From Deferribacterales bacterium (GTDB lineage: Bacteria > Chrysiogenota > Deferribacteres > Deferribacterales > Geovibrionaceae): 64,000 nucleotides of DNA. Within the stretch, counting starts at the first letter, position 1. Every line of letters starts with the position of its first letter. The notes under the pieces were generated by a model that worked only from the letters and a program-made list of their open reading frames with translations, did no database searches and was not told where the DNA came from. The stretch spans positions 480,001 to 544,000 of the forward strand of contig JBFWLW010000001.1 of assembly GCA_050251945.1 (NCBI GenBank), in the 5' to 3' direction. Positions 2,799 to 64,000 of this stretch are shown one piece after another. The position numbers and the translations under genes were made by a program.

Positions 2799-3987
2799 TC
2801 TTTTTTCCGTAAAGCTCAGATGCAAACATCAGCAGTTTTTCCGCCGCTGTATCTTTAGTGACCTTTCCGGTGCAGAAAGGTTCTCTGTCACATGAAAAAA
2901 TCACAATCTCATTGCTGTCCGCCTCAAAACCGATATCTTTTCTGGAGATATCGTTGGCGGCTACCATATCGAGTTTTTTCTCAGCAAGTTTTTTACGGGC
3001 GTTGGCTTCCAGATTGTCGGATTCAGCCGCAAACCCCACAAAAATCTGACCGTCTTTTTTCAACGGAGCAATCTCTTTGAGTATATCGGGATTTTTGACA
3101 AGACGAATTGTCATTTCAGCATTGTCTGTCTTCTTTATCTTCGTATCTGAATATTCCGCCGCGCGGAAATCCGCAACAGCCGCCGCCATAACAAGTATGT
3201 CGGCATCTGCAACAGCCTGCTTGACGGCATTAAGCATTTCAAGTGCAGACAGCACATTAACGGTATCAAAACCGTCCACTGCAACGCTCGTAAGCCCTGC
3301 GATAAGTTTTACATCCGCACCGAGCCTTTGTGCCTGTCTGGCAACGGCAAGCCCCATTTTTCCGCTGGAGCGGTTGGTAATGAACCGCACAGGGTCGATG
3401 GCTTCCGCCGTGGCACCTGCGGTGACAAGCACCTTAAGTCCTGCCAGCGGCTTTTCCTGACTGAAAACATATTCAAATATCTCTTCCGGTTCCGCCATGC
3501 GCCCTTTGCCCTCTGTACGGCACGCCATCTCTCCCGTATTGGGGTCTATCAGATCGTGTCCCAGAGAAGCAAGCAAAGCCAGATTCTTCTGCGTGGCAGG
3601 GTTTGCATACATATCCACATTCATGGACGGCGCAATGTGTATGGGCTTTTTATATGGAAGCACAGTGGATGTGAGGAGATCGTCCGCCATTCCGTGGGCG
3701 ATTTTCGCAATGATGTTCGCTGTGGCGGGGGCGATGATGAATTCATCCGCCCAGCCTGCGAGCCAGACATGTTCTATTATCCCCGGCTCAATTCCAGCCT
3801 CGAACTCACCTGTATAGACACGGTTTCCCGTGATAGCCTGAAATGTCAGAGGAGTGACAAAGCGGCAAGCGGTCCCGGTCATGATAACTTTGACCTCATG
3901 CCCCGCTTTCACCATCAGGCGGCAGAGATGAACAGATTTGTAACAGGCTATCCCGCCTGTTACACCGAGAAGTATCTTCTTAGTCAT
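2785..3987 (-). CDS. coaBC: Phosphopantothenoylcysteine decarboxylase/ligase
   Basis: GVTGGIACYK, APATAN, PSMN, VTAGAT.E.IDPVRFITNRSSGKMG, VGFAAES. Confidence 0.96.
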   Translation of the reverse strand: MTKKILLGVTGGIACYKSVHLCRLMVKAGHEVKVIMTGTACRFVTPLTFQAITGNRVYTGEFEAGIEPGIIEHVWLAGWADEFIIAPATANIIAKIAHGMADDLLTSTVLPYKKPIHIAPSMNVDMYANPATQKNLALLASLGHDLIDPNTGEMACRTEGKGRMAEPEEIFEYVFSQEKPLAGLKVLVTAGATAEAIDPVRFITNRSSGKMGLAVARQAQRLGADVKLIAGLTSVAVDGFDTVNVLSALEMLNAVKQAVADADILVMAAAVADFRAAEYSDTKIKKTDNAEMTIRLVKNPDILKEIAPLKKDGQIFVGFAAESDNLEANARKKLAEKKLDMVAANDISRKDIGFEADSNEIVIFSCDREPFCTGKVTKDTAAEKLLMFASELYGKKNGSV

Positions 3988-13888: not shown

Positions 13889-13972
13889 TGCCGGAAGGGG
13901 GAATCGAACCCCCACGCCATTGCTGGCACCGGATTTTGAGTCCAGCGCGTCTACCAGTTCCACCATTCCGGC
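13889..13972 (-). tRNA. tRNA-Leu (CAA)
   Basis: GCCGGAATGGTGGAACTGGTAGACGCGCTGGACTCAAAATCCGG...GGTTCGATTCCCCCTTCCGGCA; long variable arm; CCA not encoded. Confidence 0.96.
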
Positions 13973-24584: not shown

Positions 24585-24700
24585 CCAGAACCCCATGACT
24601 GACGCAGATTAAGAAGGGTTACCTTCGGGAAGTGGGGAACATATCTAAAAGCCGTGCGTCTGGGCTGTTCACAATGATGAACCGTTCGGACGCTTTTTTC
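24585..24700 (+). promoter_or_regulatory. ZMP/ZTP (pfl) riboswitch with overlapping terminator
   Basis: CCATGACTGACG...GTGGGG...AGCCGTGCGTCTGGGC matches the pfl motif with GACG/CGTC pseudoknot; alternative hairpin GCGTCTG...CGGACGC-TTTTTT; upstream of glyA; TTGACA at 24553. Confidence 0.85.
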
Positions 24701-30806: not shown

Positions 30807-31646
30807 ATGTTAGGATTTTTGTTCATAATTTTCAGTGCCTTCACACATTCATTATGGAATGTACTGCTTAAAAGATCAGAAAATAAGTATGCATTCAACT
30901 TTTACATGCATTTTGCAAATATTTCCTTCTTCACTGTGATCTATCCGGTGGTTTTCAGAGACTATTTATATTTTGATAAAGGTGTGGTTATAACCGCCTT
31001 TATAGCTGCTATTTTTTTCTCAATTTACCACCTTTCTGTTTCAACCGCATATAAATACTCTGATGTATCACTTGTTTACCCGCTCACAACTGCTTCGCCT
31101 TTTTTTATTCTGATATGGGCTGTAATTTTTCTTAAAGAACATCTGACAGTTATGGGTCTCTCAGGTGTGATATTGACCGTTTTGGGAACGGCTGTTCTAA
31201 ACCGCGTAAAGGGTAAGTGGGGTGAATTTGGGAAAGGAGCTGTTTTCGCACTTGCCGGGGCGTTCTTCTATTCCTTCGGTGCGCTGCTGGATAAGAAAGG
31301 TGTTTCAGGCGGCAATTTCATACTGTATGTCTATTCGATGTCATTGTTTATGACAATGTTCATATTTGGATATTCTATACGCCGTGGTGAAATCATGTTT
31401 AATTATATTAAAAAAGACAGATGGTGGGTTCTTTTTGCCGGACTTGTTGTGTTTGCGTCATTTATTTCCTACCGATACGGTCTGAACATGGTAAACCTTT
31501 CCTATGCGTCGGCGATAAGACAGGTCAGCACGCTGTTCGGAGTTATCATGGGCATCATCTTTTTCAAAGAAAAGTTCACTCTTTACAAGATCTTAGGCAC
31601 AATCATCATTATGGCGGGAATAGTTCTGATCAAAATTGGCATGTAA
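30807..31646 (+). CDS. EamA/DMT family transporter
   Basis: ~10 TM segments; DVSLVYPL, SYASAIRQVS, FKEK. Confidence 0.85.
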   Translation: MLGFLFIIFSAFTHSLWNVLLKRSENKYAFNFYMHFANISFFTVIYPVVFRDYLYFDKGVVITAFIAAIFFSIYHLSVSTAYKYSDVSLVYPLTTASPFFILIWAVIFLKEHLTVMGLSGVILTVLGTAVLNRVKGKWGEFGKGAVFALAGAFFYSFGALLDKKGVSGGNFILYVYSMSLFMTMFIFGYSIRRGEIMFNYIKKDRWWVLFAGLVVFASFISYRYGLNMVNLSYASAIRQVSTLFGVIMGIIFFKEKFTLYKILGTIIIMAGIVLIKIGM

Positions 31647-31733
31647 CTTGATATTACCCTTATCGGTAGCGGAACAACCGCGCCACTGAGACGGAGCTCA
31701 CTGTGAGTGCCGGCAGGAGGCCGGCCTTCCTTC

Positions 31734-32918
31734 TTAAGATTCTTCTACTATATCATTTATTTGATTATTAGACGCATCTTCAAGTGACCATTTAGTGACC
31801 ATATTTGAAAATTGAGATGTGACTTTTTTTCTGTTTTTGATAAACCTTGCGTAGTGAGTAAATAACATTTTGAGAGATGTGTGACCCAACTGTTTAGCCA
31901 CATCTTCCGGATCGTCACCTTCCTTAAGAGACAAAACAGCAAAAGTGTGTCGGCATTGATAAGGGATGCGGTATTCAATTCCAAGTTTTTTCAGTACCGG
32001 CTTCCAGTATAACTTTATAATGTTCCCACTACTTGTATATGGCTGGCCTTGACGATTAACAAATATAAACTCAGACCGCAAAAATGAAACAGCCTTTTGC
32101 CTTTTAAGAATCTGTTGTATCATCGGGGAAAGATCAATATATCTGTCAGATCCTTCTGTTTTTGTCCGCGAGAGCTTACGTTTCGAGAAAGATTCCTTAA
32201 TATGATATGACCAATTATTTGTATCCAGATTTTCCCACTTCATAGCTAGAACTTCACCGGTACGCATACCTGTAAAAAATAGAGTTGCTATTATAGGATA
32301 AATCTTTTCATGGTCGTGCTGCATTTGAGAAAGAATCTTGAACATTTCTTCTTTTTCAAAAGGCTGAATATCTGGCTTATCAACACGAAGCTTAGAAATG
32401 CGCTCAAACGGACTCTTATCAATATATTCCTTATCAACTGCATATATAAAAACCTGCTTGAGCGTAGTTATTGTGTTATTAACTGATTTTGCTTTTCTGC
32501 CAATTGAATAATCGGCAATGAAATCATCAATATCTGCTTTAGTGATTGTATGAACTAAGCAATTATTAAAACGTTGAACAAAGTTTCTTATTTCGTTTTT
32601 ATAATTATTGAATGTACTGAGAGCTATATTGCCGGAAAGATAGCGTTTCTCAGCATTTTCCATCCAGCGACCAAAGAGTTCTTCAACACACACATTAACC
32701 CTAACTCTCCCACCAAATAAAATACATTTTTTTGATTCTGGAAAATACTCACTGTAATTAAAAGCATTTCTCTCTATCTTGTTCTCTATCTCTCCTAAAA
32801 GACGTTCTGCATACTTGATATTAGTCTTATTGTAAGGAGCCTTGAGAGATTCACGGCAACGAACTCCTTTATATCTGAAATCAATCCAAACTTTATTATT
32901 TTTTTCAAAAACACCCAT
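31734..32918 (-). CDS. int: Tyrosine recombinase/integrase with N-terminal arm-binding domain
   Basis: IDFRYKGVRCRE N-terminus; TGMRTGEV, YQCRHTFA, LGH, HY catalytic residues. Confidence 0.95.
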   Translation of the reverse strand: MGVFEKNNKVWIDFRYKGVRCRESLKAPYNKTNIKYAERLLGEIENKIERNAFNYSEYFPESKKCILFGGRVRVNVCVEELFGRWMENAEKRYLSGNIALSTFNNYKNEIRNFVQRFNNCLVHTITKADIDDFIADYSIGRKAKSVNNTITTLKQVFIYAVDKEYIDKSPFERISKLRVDKPDIQPFEKEEMFKILSQMQHDHEKIYPIIATLFFTGMRTGEVLAMKWENLDTNNWSYHIKESFSKRKLSRTKTEGSDRYIDLSPMIQQILKRQKAVSFLRSEFIFVNRQGQPYTSSGNIIKLYWKPVLKKLGIEYRIPYQCRHTFAVLSLKEGDDPEDVAKQLGHTSLKMLFTHYARFIKNRKKVTSQFSNMVTKWSLEDASNNQINDIVEES

Positions 32919-35858: not shown

Positions 35859-38495
35859 ATGAGTAGACTGCTCATCAACGAACCGCCTTTGCTTGTGCTC
35901 CCGTTGTTAGCCAAAACAATTGGTCTCAATGAAGCTATCCTGCTTCAACAGCTCCATTACTGGCTTAAACGATCTAAGCATGAAGCAGGTGGCGAAAGAT
36001 GGGTTTACAACACATATGCAGATTGGTTAGAACAACTCCCTTTCTGGAGCGACAAAACGCTCCGAAGAATTGTAAAAAATCTTGAAGACTCACAAATCTT
36101 AATTTCAACGTATGAATTCAATCTTAGTATCAATAAGACGAAATGGTATCGAATTGATTATACTAAGCTGAATGCCCAAATCGGAACACCCAGTAAAACT
36201 GAACTAATCATTGACGACTACCCGCTTATGTTCCAGCCTACTCTCGCAGTAAATTACGGTCTCAATGAAGCCATCTTCCTTCAGCAGCTTCACTATTGGC
36301 TTAAATACGGGAATCCTAAACAGCAAGATTCACATATCTGGGTTGTCAGCAGCTATAAAAACTGGCTTAAACAATTCTCATTCTGGAGTGAAGACACTCT
36401 CTATCGAACAATAAAGAAATTATCTGATATGAATCTTGTCATAGCTACAGGAAAATACAATAGTTCCGCCATGGATAAGACCAAATGGCTTACAATCCGG
36501 TATGATATGTTCCCAGCCGCAACGATACCGCAATCTGACCAGACGACACCGCAATCTGACCAGACGATACCGCAACTTGACCAGACGATACCGCAACTTG
36601 ACCAGACGATACCGCAACTTGACCAGACGATACCGCAACTTGACCAGACGATACCGCAACTTGACCAGACGATACCGCAACTTGACCAGACGATACCGCA
36701 ATCTGACCAGATTACACCGCAATTTGACCACATACGACACCGCAATCTGACCAGTCCACATTATTATATAGACTATAATACAGAGACTATAACAAAGACT
36801 GAAAGAAAGATCGGCAAGAGCCAAAGCCAAACAACTACAAATGAAGTTTTAACATCTGTTCATGAAAATTCAGTTCAGATTCAAAAATTGCCTGACTTTT
36901 TCAACAATGTTGATAACTTTGAGGCGCACAACACGTCTCAAACGCAAGAAAGCGAACCAAACAATACCATGACATCGAAAACACCAAAAACTCTCACCAG
37001 AGACGAAATACTCGCTCATTACGATACAGCGTTCAGCTTGTTCAAGCTGTTGATAAATGAAAACGCAATTAAAAAGCCGACAGCTATCCTAGAAGGTCTG
37101 ATTGAAGACGGAATTAACAAGTATGGAAATAACTTCATTGAAATAATTTTTGAGAACGTCAAAAAATCTGATTTTTTGCTAGGGATAAAATCTTTCAATG
37201 TTAAATTATCTTGGATTATAAAAAACGCAGAAAATATAATATCCGGTAAATACGAAAATGAAGACTGTAAATCTTTGTACGAACTTGCGCAGGAGTGTTG
37301 TTCAGAAAATCAGATATGTCCTTTGATCAAAACAAATAAAACACTGCTTCAAAAATGTAAATTCTGCAACAAATACCCCAATAGACAGAACAAAGTAGGA
37401 GTAGTTGAAAAAACTCCAAAACAACAAGCAGAAGAATGTTCTGTAAAAGGCTTCTGTCCCATGGAACGTTTTAATTTAAAGCATTTAAAATCTTCCCCTG
37501 CATGTACTGTTTGCAGATTCGGGCCAAAACCAGAAGAGACAACAGTTACGGATACAGATCCTCAAACTCAAGCTAAAAAATGCTATGAAAAATGCAAAGG
37601 CATGTGTTCGCACCGTATAATGAAAACACCAGCACTTGAATATTGTATATTTTGTCCGGGAACTGTAGACACCACACCTAAAAGAAAAAAGCAAAAATCA
37701 TCAAAAAGTCGGAATCAATTAGAACAATCATGCAAAAAACCAAACGATATGATCGTTAACTATAAAAATTCAGACGAGGTCTGGATTGCCGCATATGAAT
37801 TTATCAACAGCATTGATGAACATAGAAAAATCTCAAAACTTATAGAGGAAGTTGCCGTATTTTCTGTCTATAGCGTAAGCGATTTGCACTCTGAAAGCCT
37901 GATTATCGCATATAACACGTTAATGGAATTTGCTGCTACAGATCAACACATTACTCTTTCAAAACTACAAAGTCACTTCTACATGAATTTAAAGAATTTT
38001 TTTATCAGGAAATGCTCTAATATTCCAGCTCTGAGGGACGTTCTGAAGACTGATAACAAAAGTGCATGTTCATTTTTCGATATTTCGGAGATAGAAGGAG
38101 TATTGCAGACTGAAATTGATAATTCAAACTCAGTTTTCATTGACGATGAACTGGACAACGATTTAATCACAAATTCAGACGAAACCATACGCATTCTTTT
38201 AGGCATACTTGAACCGAAAGAAGAACAGGTTTTTCGTTACAGATTCGGTTTAACACAGCGCGGGAAACTGACACAAAAAGAATGTGGTGAGATATTTAAC
38301 TGTACGGATAAAAACGTTCTCAAGATAGAAAAAGAGGCTGTAAATAAGATTAAAGAATTCATAAAAGAAGAAAAAATTAATAAAGACATGTCTATCAGTC
38401 TGCTTAAAGAAAAAGTCGCTCAATACCAAAAGAAATTAAAACCGATTAAATTTGATGGTTATTTTGAACTTGGAAATCTCGCTAATGCTATCTAA
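35859..38495 (+). CDS. Multidomain replication-initiator-like protein (2x wHTH, heptad repeats, 3 Cys-rich repeats, sigma70 region-4-like C-terminus)
   Basis: Duplicated GLNEAI.LQQLHYWL...W..QL.FWS..TL.R...KW..I.Y domain; LEPKEEQVFRYRFGL..KLTQKECGEIFNCT..NV.KIEKEA. Confidence 0.7.
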   Translation: MSRLLINEPPLLVLPLLAKTIGLNEAILLQQLHYWLKRSKHEAGGERWVYNTYADWLEQLPFWSDKTLRRIVKNLEDSQILISTYEFNLSINKTKWYRIDYTKLNAQIGTPSKTELIIDDYPLMFQPTLAVNYGLNEAIFLQQLHYWLKYGNPKQQDSHIWVVSSYKNWLKQFSFWSEDTLYRTIKKLSDMNLVIATGKYNSSAMDKTKWLTIRYDMFPAATIPQSDQTTPQSDQTIPQLDQTIPQLDQTIPQLDQTIPQLDQTIPQLDQTIPQLDQTIPQSDQITPQFDHIRHRNLTSPHYYIDYNTETITKTERKIGKSQSQTTTNEVLTSVHENSVQIQKLPDFFNNVDNFEAHNTSQTQESEPNNTMTSKTPKTLTRDEILAHYDTAFSLFKLLINENAIKKPTAILEGLIEDGINKYGNNFIEIIFENVKKSDFLLGIKSFNVKLSWIIKNAENIISGKYENEDCKSLYELAQECCSENQICPLIKTNKTLLQKCKFCNKYPNRQNKVGVVEKTPKQQAEECSVKGFCPMERFNLKHLKSSPACTVCRFGPKPEETTVTDTDPQTQAKKCYEKCKGMCSHRIMKTPALEYCIFCPGTVDTTPKRKKQKSSKSRNQLEQSCKKPNDMIVNYKNSDEVWIAAYEFINSIDEHRKISKLIEEVAVFSVYSVSDLHSESLIIAYNTLMEFAATDQHITLSKLQSHFYMNLKNFFIRKCSNIPALRDVLKTDNKSACSFFDISEIEGVLQTEIDNSNSVFIDDELDNDLITNSDETIRILLGILEPKEEQVFRYRFGLTQRGKLTQKECGEIFNCTDKNVLKIEKEAVNKIKEFIKEEKINKDMSISLLKEKVAQYQKKLKPIKFDGYFELGNLANAI
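36522..36754 (+). repeat. 21-bp tandem repeat (iteron-like), 10 in-phase copies plus 1 offset copy
   Basis: Consensus ACGATACCGCAACTTGACCAG. Confidence 0.95.
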
Positions 38496-38521
38496 AAAAG
38501 GGGAAGCCGAAGCTTCCCCTA
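38494..38521 (-). terminator. Intrinsic terminator of the minus-strand ncRNA
   Basis: AGGGGAAGC-TTCG-GCTTCCCCT-TTTTT on the minus strand. Confidence 0.85.
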
Positions 38522-39745
38522 ATGAGACAGACAAGTTGAACTTGTCCGGTATCTTAAAAGCATTTACTTCCATAGAAGATTTGAACCTAGATCCCTTCGG
38601 CCAGCACCTTTTCTTCAGTGCTCATCTGTCCTTCGCTTACCACTTTCCGGTGCCACCCGGATAATGTGCCGCAGGCTCTTAACCTGTACGGTCGGACGCA
38701 GACGTGGAGCTTGCGCTCCGGGCTTACTACGAATCCTCTGTGCCCTGCCGGATATCCGACAGGTTACATCCCCGATTCAGATAATGCACCAACAGCCTAA
38801 GCTGTCCCGATGCCGTGAGCTTCTACCTCACCTACCCCATGTAATACCTTAGACGGCTCCTGTACTTTAATTTTCGGCGTCGGCACTTATGCCGGCTTTA
38901 ATGCAGTTTTCAGCTTACGAAGTGTCACAGATCAGCTTACTCGCACTTACTTATCAAAGTTTTAAACGGAGCTTCCTCTCGTCGTCATAGTATTTCGTGT
39001 CGCCCTCACGGGCTTTAAACCGACTGCTCTAATTGCAAGGACTTCAGGATGACCAATCCGTTATCTCCCGCAACCGCCGGTTCACTTGCGGGTTAGCAGA
39101 GCTTCAGCTCATGCTCCCCCGACCAAAAGGGTATCTATCCTATCCAGGCGCACCGCTTCGCGCGCTTAAAACGAAACATGAACTCAACCTTTAGTCACAC
39201 CCTGCTTTGGCAAAGCAGGTAGCTCCTGAAGGCTGGTTCCCGAACCATGCGGACGAGTTTCCTTCGTACATGGCTCTCCGGTTCATCCCTTATTCCGTAA
39301 AATGGCTTGAAGTTTCATCGGAGCTGGTCAGGCTCTGGAAATACGGACTTCGGGACTCTCCTACAGTTGAAATGCTTTTAAAAAACCAGGCATCAATCTA
39401 TATCATCAGCTAAAAAGCTGTTGGCTGGGGAAAGTGCCGCTGATTTCGTTCGTTTCTACATACTGCCTCCAAACGGCTACTCGCCGTAACTCAGAGAAAC
39501 GAATCTCATCTTGTGCACTTGCTTATTTTGGTTTGCATCTGCAGACAGAAACACAACCTCACTCAGTCGGGGTCCCTTTCCGGGACTAATGCGTACCTGC
39601 TGTATAGCAGTAAGAAGTGTAACCATGGAATTTAATCACAATATTGCTGTCCTGAGTTTCAGGGTTCCTTTCCGGAACAACACAGCTTTGCCCACGTTGG
39701 CGGACTAACCGGGAGCAATCAAGCTCTATTTATTTCACAATATAT
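38495..39745 (-). ncRNA. Circularly permuted group II intron RNA (DV-DVI, 24-nt exon, DI-DIII)
   Basis: DV GAGCCAUGUACGAAGGAAACUCGUCCGCAUGGUUC (39276-39242); DVI with bulged A at 39184 ending AU at 39178; exon 39177-39154; GUGCG at 39153; EBS2/EBS1 complementary to the exon. Confidence 0.85.
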
Positions 39746-39751
39746 GTCTGG

Positions 39752-39781
39752 AATTTAGTCCGTTATCAGCGTAGATGTCAA
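39752..39781 (-). promoter_or_regulatory. Putative sigma70 promoter for the permuted intron RNA
   Basis: TTGACA (39781-39776)-18nt-TAAATT. Confidence 0.55.
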
Positions 39782-40012
39782 CGCTTTTGCCGTTCGTTAT
39801 ATCCACTTCTGTAATAAACGATAACATTTTGATGTTATTCGTTTATTACTTTTCGATGATGGAACGAAGGATTGTGGAAAAGTCTTACTCCGAAGCTCGT
39901 CTCAACGCCTGCGGGGGTTTCTGCCTTACCCCCGCCCACCGGCGTAGCCTTCGAGCATCTACGGCGACTTTACCACAATCCTTCTCTTTACCATCCATGA
40001 CATTATAAGAGT

Positions 40013-41038
40013 ATGAAAATCGAAAATAACTACTATAACTTACGTCGCTCACAACTGAAAATTCTCATGCGCTCATATTTCCAAAACGGTGAGCTTTATG
40101 AAATCATGAATCGCAAAACAACAAATGAAATGGCGGTCAAGCTGGCTGATAAATATTTTCACAAAGCAGGACCTACTATCTACGATGAAGTGGTCGGCAT
40201 GTACAAAGTGTTCCTCTGCCTTGCACCGATCCTTCAAAAGCAAAAGAACAGCTTCAAGCTGGACTGGACAAAAGGGAATGCCCTCAGCTGGCTCCGGAGG
40301 CTTTTCAACGGAAGAAACAAGAAATGGTACTGCTCGGTATCTGTTCTGCCTCGACAGCACGATCCGGAGCTCTTCAAGCGTGTGTTTCGCAACTTAGGAA
40401 TATCAGATAACGCTTTTATCGAATATGCCCTTGAGAGATATCTCTGCTTTTGGGGAGCCACTGGGCGAAAAGGATCTCTGGCAAACTGCATCTTCGACCC
40501 ACTCTTTTTCAGAACTGATTCCGGACTCAGAATAGAAAACTGCGTAATAAATGTCTCATCAGCCAAAAAAGACGGTTACTCTCATATCTTTCAACAACCG
40601 CTTGAAATCATGTGCTATTCAGTAACAGGATACGAATTATACAATCGTACTCACATAGAAGTACGTCTCTCCGCAGACTATTTAAAATCTATCCGACAAA
40701 GACTTGGGATTGTAGTTGAAGACCGGACAAGCGTTGAACATAAACTAAGACTGATAAACGCACAGATTAATTCGTTTATCGAAAATGCCAGGTATGCAAA
40801 AGATGCATTCGAGCAAGTGAGAGAGGTGCAGCAGTATTTTTCCGGTAAAACAAAACGTCTTGCAGGCGTTAATCCGGAATTCAGACATATCACAGCAGCA
40901 ATAACAACACAGTATCTTGAACGAGTATCGAACCGCTTCACATACCAGCGAAATAACTTTTTCTGGGATAAGGACCACAACTCAATTCCTGAAAAAACAT
41001 TCATGATATATTTCAGTCCATATCGGGAAAAAATATGA
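40013..41038 (+). CDS. Degenerate group II intron RT/maturase-like protein lacking YADD
   Basis: PTIYDEVV..LAPIL (RT2-like), GSLANCIFDPL (RT4-like), RIENCVI at the RYADDFVI position, C-terminal thumb/X-like LRLINAQINSFIENARYA. Confidence 0.7.
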   Translation: MKIENNYYNLRRSQLKILMRSYFQNGELYEIMNRKTTNEMAVKLADKYFHKAGPTIYDEVVGMYKVFLCLAPILQKQKNSFKLDWTKGNALSWLRRLFNGRNKKWYCSVSVLPRQHDPELFKRVFRNLGISDNAFIEYALERYLCFWGATGRKGSLANCIFDPLFFRTDSGLRIENCVINVSSAKKDGYSHIFQQPLEIMCYSVTGYELYNRTHIEVRLSADYLKSIRQRLGIVVEDRTSVEHKLRLINAQINSFIENARYAKDAFEQVREVQQYFSGKTKRLAGVNPEFRHITAAITTQYLERVSNRFTYQRNNFFWDKDHNSIPEKTFMIYFSPYREKI

Positions 41039-41472
41039 AAATTAAAAGAAAAGCGCAGCCGCCAAAACCATACAGATATCGCCGCGATCTGACAGAAGAT
41101 CATTTTTCTATACGCCATGCATTCAGGAAAGGATTCCGTAAGCTGAAAGTTGAAGTCTTGTATTCAGGTCCAGTTTTCAGGAATTTATATTTTCCTATCT
41201 GGGAACGTTACGCTCCCGGAGAGTTCCGATTTCTGAAAACAGAGTTCAGAGAGTGCAACATCACAGTTATCAGCAATACTGACGTGAAACGAATTTGTAA
41301 CTATATCGACATTGACAAATCTGCCATTCTTCAAGTTTTTTTTGATTTTGCAGCCTTACCTGTACTCTCCGCAGAGGCTCGCGATAATGAGTATTCATTC
41401 CTTGCGAGATTCAGATATGAGGGAGTCAATAGCTACGCATTTGCAACAGAAAGATTGATTAAAAAATTTTAA
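41035..41472 (+). CDS. Hypothetical basic protein coupled to the maturase-like gene
   Basis: ATGA overlap with the upstream stop; 145 aa. Confidence 0.65.
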   Translation: MKIKRKAQPPKPYRYRRDLTEDHFSIRHAFRKGFRKLKVEVLYSGPVFRNLYFPIWERYAPGEFRFLKTEFRECNITVISNTDVKRICNYIDIDKSAILQVFFDFAALPVLSAEARDNEYSFLARFRYEGVNSYAFATERLIKKF

Positions 41473-63701: not shown

Positions 63702-64000
63702 CTTCAACCTCCTTCATAGTTAAGTATAGTCCTTTCCAGAAAGAAGTCAATAGTAAATTACTTTTAAATTCCAGATAGTTACCTGATTTTTACCTAAAAA
63801 AATCAGGTAAAATTTCCACCTCGAAAAACTTTTAAAACATTTTTTCAACTTGCCATATATTTCTTATGCGTATAAAAATACACGCATACGCAATTATTAT
63901 ATTGAATTAATCATTTATTTATAAATTGCAAAATAGGTAAAAAAATGAATGACGAGAAATTATACTATGATAACAAAGATTTAAAGCTCAAATATGGTAT

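Follow-up and report, generated by a model that had tools for sequence, protein, structure and literature searches.

The window analysed here, a stretch of 64,000 nucleotides from a Deferribacterales bacterium (GenBank assembly GCA_050251945.1, contig JBFWLW010000001.1, positions 480,001 to 544,000), contains an integrative and conjugative element (ICE) with a circularly permuted (CP) group II ribozyme on its minus strand. Judged from its sequence, this RNA is real and conserved and forms a new lineage within a ribozyme class that is already known. It lies beside a divergent gene for a protein modelled as a maturase without catalytic aspartates, and its exon-binding site 1 (EBS1) is perfectly complementary to a DNA site upstream of the RNA far more often than to its own exon. 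DNA targeting of some kind is very probable, and we lean slightly towards the reading that splicing arms a branched ribonucleoprotein (RNP), which nicks the DNA of its own element as an RNA relaxase.

The CP class itself is known, as an earlier note on this DNA had pointed out: CP group II ribozymes accompanied by AcpG were described by Roth et al. (2021; PMC8637638), and structures have been presented (PMC13717195; bioRxiv 10.64898/2025.12.30.696962). In the available parts of PMC8637638, the role of CP RNAs is given as unknown, open reading frames (ORFs) for intron-encoded proteins (IEPs) are said never to lie near them, and the terms 'nick', 'mobiliz' and 'promoter' have 0 occurrences. The upstream EBS1 target, the relaxase gap of the plasmids described below and the maturase-fold partner of a separate lineage are new. 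No prior report of the upstream site or of a relaxase role was found in the literature searched, which mostly excluded subscription journals.

Layout of the permuted RNA

The Rfam model Intron_gpII (RF00029) matched positions 39278–39178 on the minus strand with 43.3 bits, against a cut-off of 40. A second set of domains 5 and 6 (D5, D6), which the earlier note had regarded as the mark of two ordinary intron fragments, was not found, as neither the window nor the rest of the genome gave another Intron_gpII match. The Rfam search proposed in that note gave a divided outcome: D5 and D6 were matched, but the models for domains 1 to 4 (D1–D4) remained below the cut-off at this locus.

In transcript order on the minus strand, the RNA consists of D5, D6, a 24-nt exon, GUGCG with D1, D2 and D3, and a terminator, and its internal splice sites are reversed. 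D5 (39242–39278) displays the AGC triad at 39275–39273 and a GAAA loop. D6 (39178–39241) contains a bulged branch A at 39184 and ends in AU at 39178, after which the 3' splice site is placed; both the Rfam match and the covariation of the gamma-gamma' pair agree with this assignment. The internal exon (39154–39177), the predicted circle, is followed by D1 (38770–39153), which starts at the 5' splice site GUGCG (39153) and is seen in the fold and in homologues. The D2 hairpin and J2/3 AGA (38737–38762; AGA at 38739–38737, gamma A at 38739) lead into D3 (38630–38736; 38731–38630 in the reading of the sequence), which is conserved in homologues and seen in the fold, and an intrinsic terminator hairpin with a U run (38494–38520), kept in homologues, ends the RNA. 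The features that the earlier note had described, from the triad to the terminator, thus stand. The basal D1 stem was assigned partly by analogy with what we take to be the IIA arrangement, and D2, D3 and the branch position likewise presumably resemble those of IIA introns.

The split D4 stem is formed by a leading strand (39370–39390, minus strand) that closes on a trailing strand (38546–38565, minus strand) in the minimum free energy fold, with compensatory changes across five Deferribacterales loci. A cross-partner control on 15 loci, of which 10 could be parsed, ranked a locus's own strand first in 6. Pairing of the 5' leader with the 3' tail as a split D4 is a published feature of a CP intron (PMC13717195). 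The described CP class also has P1/P2 hairpins and P2-D2, P1-3' and D3-D1 pseudoknots; here, a candidate pairing of 39427–39418 with 38797–38789 has to compete in the fold with a local hairpin. Upstream of the RNA, TTGACA at 39776–39781 (minus strand) is a putative -35 box of its promoter, a consensus match conserved in the five Deferribacterales loci. Thus, the permuted arrangement, with D5 and D6 ahead of D1 to D3, is confirmed at the level of sequence, and the RNA is predicted to splice in vivo.

Conservation of the RNA lineage

Permuted copies that were 72–78% identical, with the same order and conserved D1–D3, were found in 4 of 60 related genomes. A pattern search for D5/D6 located 7 loci among genome contigs (from Deferribacterales, Desulfocurvus, Humidesulfovibrio, Methyloversatilis and one bin labelled proteobacterial), 42 in metagenomes and none in viral contigs; one metagenome match (L051) was rejected as a chance pattern match. 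No match to the lineage was obtained in PLSDB. With duplicates removed, 51 distinct loci parse from D6 to the GUGCG 5' splice site, all with the same domain order, so the placement of the 3' half ahead of the 5' half that the earlier note had observed recurs throughout. The gamma base co-varies with the last intron base among 38 loci (A-U in 24, G-C in 12, A-C in 2, one of the latter, in L075, being a mis-pick where the real base is G), in agreement with the proposed match of gamma A to the terminal U. In one locus (L024:44-708), the first copy is followed about 4 kb downstream by a partial second copy of D1–D4.

The exon is conserved in neither length nor sequence, ranging from 13 to 267 nt across the 51 loci and mostly from 13 to 35 nt. 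Exons of 126–267 nt with internal hairpins occur in L014/L017 (G006, G001), L061 and L070, compared to a published range of 15–86 nt. Since exon length varies and the intron-binding site (IBS1) of the exon is rarely perfect (3 of 40 loci, see below), the 24-nt circle, on which the earlier note had placed its emphasis, looks like a discarded activation product, with the branched RNA as the working species. It is very improbable that the small circle serves as the functional product, or that the locus is a relic without a role or two fragments of ordinary tandem introns, and we consider these explanations largely excluded. They could draw on the D1–D4 models below cut-off and on the modest cross-partner result for the split D4. 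Against them stand the single D5/D6 in this genome, the constant order in 51 loci, the covariation of both the gamma pair and the EBS1 site, and a partner gene that is constant next to an exon that is not.

The partner protein

The partner, a 341-aa ORF at 40013–41038 on the plus strand with predicted fingers, palm and thumb, was overlooked in the earlier note, as were the EBS1 loop and its upstream target. It lies on the opposite strand, upstream of the RNA, at every locus where it was found. Within the phylum it is present in 5 of 68 genomes, which are the same five that carry the RNA, and among 401 genomes of the order Desulfovibrionales it is present in 9, with the permuted RNA adjoining all 17 strong matches. 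Searches that started from the protein thus found the RNA alongside in 17/17 Desulfovibrionales loci and 5/5 loci of the phylum; a weak protein match without the RNA (G069:C27) was rejected. The partner was seen at 30 of the 42 metagenome loci, and of the others 11 break off no more than 891 nt upstream and the last is the chance match. A 145-aa ORF (41035–41472, plus strand) that overlaps the stop of the partner gene is retained in the Deferribacterales loci and has no family match, and in Desulfovibrionales two further ORFs share the operon, a small one upstream and one of 134 aa.

Family libraries and a protein atlas gave no identity for the partner, which was obtained from fold comparison alone. 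A profile search with the partner gave 89 clusters, and the Pfam family GIIM matched weakly in 1 of 78 family members (E 2e-4). The AlphaFold2 model has a predicted local distance difference test score of 96.3. The top Foldseek matches of the model were three group II IEPs (E 3e-4 to 7e-4), and the VIA comparison with 6ME0 chain C gave Z 19.3 and a root-mean-square deviation of 3.2 over 287 aligned residues. Hairpin 172–182 reads LRIENCVINVS, with RIEN at the expected place of YADD and RxGN as the family consensus, an equivalence based on the order of structural elements. According to the model, the partner is a protein of the group II reverse transcriptase (RT)/maturase fold without the catalytic aspartates, if the YADD equivalence is right. 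It would be unable to copy RNA because its catalytic hairpin reads RIEN, and it presumably binds the permuted RNA.

These results bear on the possibility that the site, RNA and maturase form a selfish cassette that moves or recombines via the nick or by borrowing an active RT in trans. Desulfovibrionales genomes hold up to three divergent copies of the module each, in varied surroundings, as such a cassette might. Yet wherever the context is long enough, the copies are seen to occupy small islands close to serine or tyrosine recombinases, the partner lacks catalytic residues, and, as argued in PMC8637638, reverse splicing of a permuted intron is unable to restore its own order. We consider this explanation improbable.

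The EBS1 loop and the upstream DNA site

The EBS1 loop, CACUUC, is located in a D1 stem-loop (38919–38924, minus strand) whose frame is invariant across loci. The exon carries GAAGCG at 39159–39154 as IBS1, with one mismatch to EBS1. A perfect complement, GAAGTG, is found in the DNA at 39804–39809 (minus strand), upstream of the putative -35 box by about 22 bp and within the sole conserved block of the region upstream of the RNA in the five Deferribacterales loci. From the geometry of IBS1 in group II introns, the cut is predicted between 39804 and 39803. The site would be outside the RNA if the predicted promoter is where transcription begins. A function as ribosome-binding site was rejected, as no ORF for it was evident by eye.

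We compared the two candidate targets in the 40 loci where the EBS1 loop was found, using a pattern with three free letters, and where at least 450 nt of upstream sequence was present. Within up to 600 nt upstream, a perfect EBS1 complement was present in 38 of the 40 loci, as compared to a mean chance expectation of 0.145 from permuted hexamers, and both misses pair through G-U. The own-exon IBS1 was perfect in the 3 loci mentioned above. At 80% D1 identity the 40 loci represent 16 lineages, 15 of which have a perfect upstream site. Three versions of loop and site co-vary: CACCUC/GAGGTG, CACUUC/GAAGTG and CGCUUC/GAAGCG. When an AT-rich flank was required, CACCUC occurred with GAGGTG in 22 of 23 cases and never with GAAGTG, CACUUC with GAAGTG in 10 of 16 cases and with GAGGTG in 2, and CGCUUC with GAAGCG in the single case. 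EBS1 thus matches the upstream DNA far more often than its own exon, and selection therefore appears to maintain the match to the DNA rather than to the exon.

Canonical group II introns with their IEPs (6ME0, 7UIM, 8T2R) share with the locus the catalytic domains, the splice-site motifs, the EBS1-IBS1 recognition and the protein fold. Here, in contrast, the RNA is permuted, the gene for the protein is not inside D4 but lies beyond the RNA on the opposite strand, its product is without the YADD aspartates, and EBS1 finds its best target in upstream DNA instead of the flanking exon.

The described CP class and its plasmids

The CP RNAs described by Roth et al. resemble the present lineage in the order D5-D6-exon-D1-D2-D3, the split D4, the AGC triad, the bulged branch A, 7 nt short of the end, a single EBS, the lack of an internal ORF, a divergent partner gene, the location on mobile DNA and the upstream EBS target, which was found in this study. 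They differ in having GGGCG and a GUAAUG-type D5 loop, as compared to GUGCG and a GAAA loop here, a smaller D1 and the narrower exon range given above, and the 341-aa partner with its full RT/thumb fold is not AcpG by profile. No blastn match was obtained between the permuted RNA and three Roth-type loci. GUGCG is found at the 5' splice site in one environmental row of the published CP alignment, and in the portion of Data S1 of PMC8637638 that was examined, Deferribacterales, Desulfovibrionales and the other taxa are absent among those named. The comparison of the partner with AcpG by hhalign gave probabilities of 0.1–0.6% (0.3% in one comparison), with no profile match. The best match of an AcpG model was the same maturase, with Z 7.9, in the unspecific range of the tool, and 6 of the first 11 rows were RTs. 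Based on the models, the CP RNAs of both families are probably paired with a dead maturase, the present lineage being the clear case.

Thirteen Roth-type plasmids were picked from AcpG matches and PMC8637638, and the RNA was parsed in 12; the patterns used found no RNA on the Gluconobacter AcpG plasmid (L119). A perfect 7-nt complement of delta plus EBS1 lies upstream in 11 of the 12 parsed loci, in four versions, with a chance of 0.03–0.10 each, and the twelfth (pMtBL) has an upstream site with one G-T pair. The perfect sites precede the 5' splice site by 260–1210 nt and follow an A-rich stretch. The own exons are perfect to EBS1 in 2 of the 12.

All 14 PLSDB plasmids matching the CP RNA were typed as non-mobilizable, as were all plasmids matching two AcpG queries (30/30 and 32/32). 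Among controls, 434 of the 5000 VirB4 plasmids among the matches listed (9%) and 1367 of 4353 Rep plasmids (31%) were typed in this way. On three plasmids with a type IV secretion system (T4SS), pRP6297_1, pBN5 and pGDIPal5I, acpG and the RNA directly adjoin the coupling protein, and each plasmid has its own Rep or a typed replicon. No relaxase was found on these plasmids in the annotation, the typing or 42 selected ORFs that were scanned, with coverage of the first 50,000 of 51,411 bases of pRP6297_1 and 9.4 of 38.8 kb of pGDIPal5I. On an E. coli T4SS plasmid with acpG, a 621-aa ORF right after acpG (L116:23095-24960) has no Pfam match, and the plasmid has no recognised relaxase.

An RNA-guided RNP could also bind or cut at the site for regulation or exclusion, repressing the divergent promoters or attacking incoming copies of the element. 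The site lies between two divergent genes, beside an AT-rich stretch that resembles a -10 box on the strand of the partner (a putative promoter), which speaks for this explanation, but origin of transfer (oriT) regions likewise overlap divergent promoters. The absence of a relaxase from AcpG plasmids and the position beside coupling proteins would be left unexplained, and we regard regulation or exclusion as unlikely.

The much-used cryptic plasmid pMtBL (L113) bears on a role in replication, in which the nick would prime replication of the excised ICE or plasmid, with the ribozyme acting for a rolling-circle Rep or as primer maker. It contains an unannotated CP group II RNA at about 3100–3950 on the plus strand, and its orf1 matches AcpG. 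The site (about 2990), the 5' splice site (3244) and acpG (110–817) are all outside OriR (1918–2759), and vectors with OriR only replicate in a cured strain (PMC6848147, PMC10033558). This result weakened an early idea that the RNA replaces Rep, and most carriers encode a Rep protein of their own. Replication genes are nonetheless frequent neighbours: an initiator-like ORF converges on the RNA in the window, a Rep-like ORF and repeats accompany L059, L075 and L080, and a CP RNA lies near the origin of pPNAP05 (PMC8637638). Priming of replication is to us a doubtful explanation.

A proposed RNA relaxase

The layout of the RNA, the fold of the partner, the co-varying site and the relaxase gap of the Roth-type plasmids form the observed basis for the relaxase reading, and the suggestion in the earlier note of a ribozyme domesticated for the element is supported. 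During the initial step of group II reverse splicing, the DNA becomes covalently linked at its 5' end to RNA and a free 3'-OH remains, and the forward step reseals the strand. We propose that the RNA would back-splice once and discard its short exon, which would free the EBS1 loop and leave a branched RNA whose D6 ends in a reactive 3'-OH. The dead maturase would bind this RNA, EBS1 would pair with the perfect site upstream of the RNA's own promoter, and the first reverse-splicing step would attack the DNA there. A covalent bond would tie the new DNA 5' end to the RNA, and the DNA would keep a free 3'-OH; these are the products that a protein relaxase yields at oriT. The RNP would then lead the strand to the coupling protein and reseal it by forward splicing chemistry. 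Such a module would resemble relaxase-oriT mobilisation modules (MOB families) in these products and does so in the site between divergent promoters, the position beside the coupling protein and the small accessory genes in the operon; it differs in containing no HUH or HD relaxase domain, as catalysis would be performed by the RNA.

Several observations weigh against this proposal. The splice joint was not found in contigs of 4 sequencing runs, three of which are probably DNA, and one metatranscriptome contig runs unspliced through D6, exon and D1. A match of 6–7 nt provides little specificity by itself, so that the protein must supply the rest. The measurements behind the relaxase gap come from the Roth family and not from the present lineage, which PLSDB lacks, MOB-suite misses unfamiliar protein relaxases, and the contrast is overstated because the AcpG plasmids are related in groups (10 similar E. 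coli and 4 Ralstonia plasmids). The E. coli T4SS plasmid mentioned above has no recognisable coupling protein. Finally, a protein adjoining TraD on the host ICE combines a YdjM-like membrane domain with HD (L099:12015-13733; C1 570014-571732). HD relaxases (MOBH) are known, and this protein may be an ordinary or unusual protein relaxase of the ICE. It had no TraI_2 or MobH match, and a weak atlas lead had a score of 0.87 with 15% TraI_2. Of the 5 genomes with the RNA, 4 encode it, and so do 3 genomes in which no maturase was found; because of the latter, the host ICE could have its own protein relaxase. An early idea that the ICE is plainly without a relaxase was weakened accordingly.

With these points included, we still favour the RNA relaxase by a narrow measure. 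The evidence is evenly poised on the broader proposition that CP group II introns are ribozyme relaxases that start conjugation, in which intron and dead maturase would have been domesticated at least twice, or once very long ago, the EBS1 loop would allow oriT to be read and also reprogrammed, and plasmids and islands classed as 'non-mobilizable' would be mobile by hidden means. The locus offers a partner with a clear maturase fold, as well as a predicted DNA substrate that has a base-exact cut site and holds for both families, and the function of the CP class is thereby directly testable by cleavage and mating. If the relaxase reading is true, RNA catalyses the first step of conjugation, a task so far known only for proteins, the typing of plasmid mobility has a blind spot, and bacteria provide an independent case of the domestication of an intron into a machine, as in the spliceosome.

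The host element and its surroundings

The location of the RNA on an ICE, proposed in the earlier note, is borne out by direct repeats of 22 bp, an integrase (31734–32918), F-type tra genes and TraD. The element is 63 kb and extends from 31711 to the end of the window at 64000 and on to 574591 of contig C1, the repeats being at 31711–31732 of the window and 574570–574591 of C1. Other genes of the ICE encode an actin-like protein and a topoisomerase.

The ORF that converges on the RNA (35859–38495, plus strand) encodes 878 aa, including a tandem repeat of 7 residues and, at the C-terminus, a sigma-70 region 4, and homologues adjoin the RNA in related ICEs. Its duplicated N-terminal motif is presumably that of a replication initiator. 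Downstream of the terminator, the loci L059, L075 and L080 contain iteron-like direct repeats of about 22 bp and a Rep-like ORF, and are probable plasmids.

The att repeat is part of a GC-rich intergenic stretch (31646–31733; C1 574570–574591) that matches neither a tRNA nor an Rfam family, and possibly represents an unannotated structured RNA or riboswitch that serves as insertion site. Cargo genes of the ICE (L098:946-12008) include a helicase/DUF2726 protein, a pPIWI-associated nuclease, an Xre-RES pair and DUF4238, and are likely defence genes. Outside the ICE, the window contains a ZMP/ZTP riboswitch (24585–24672, plus strand) and a tRNA-Leu (13889–13972, minus strand).

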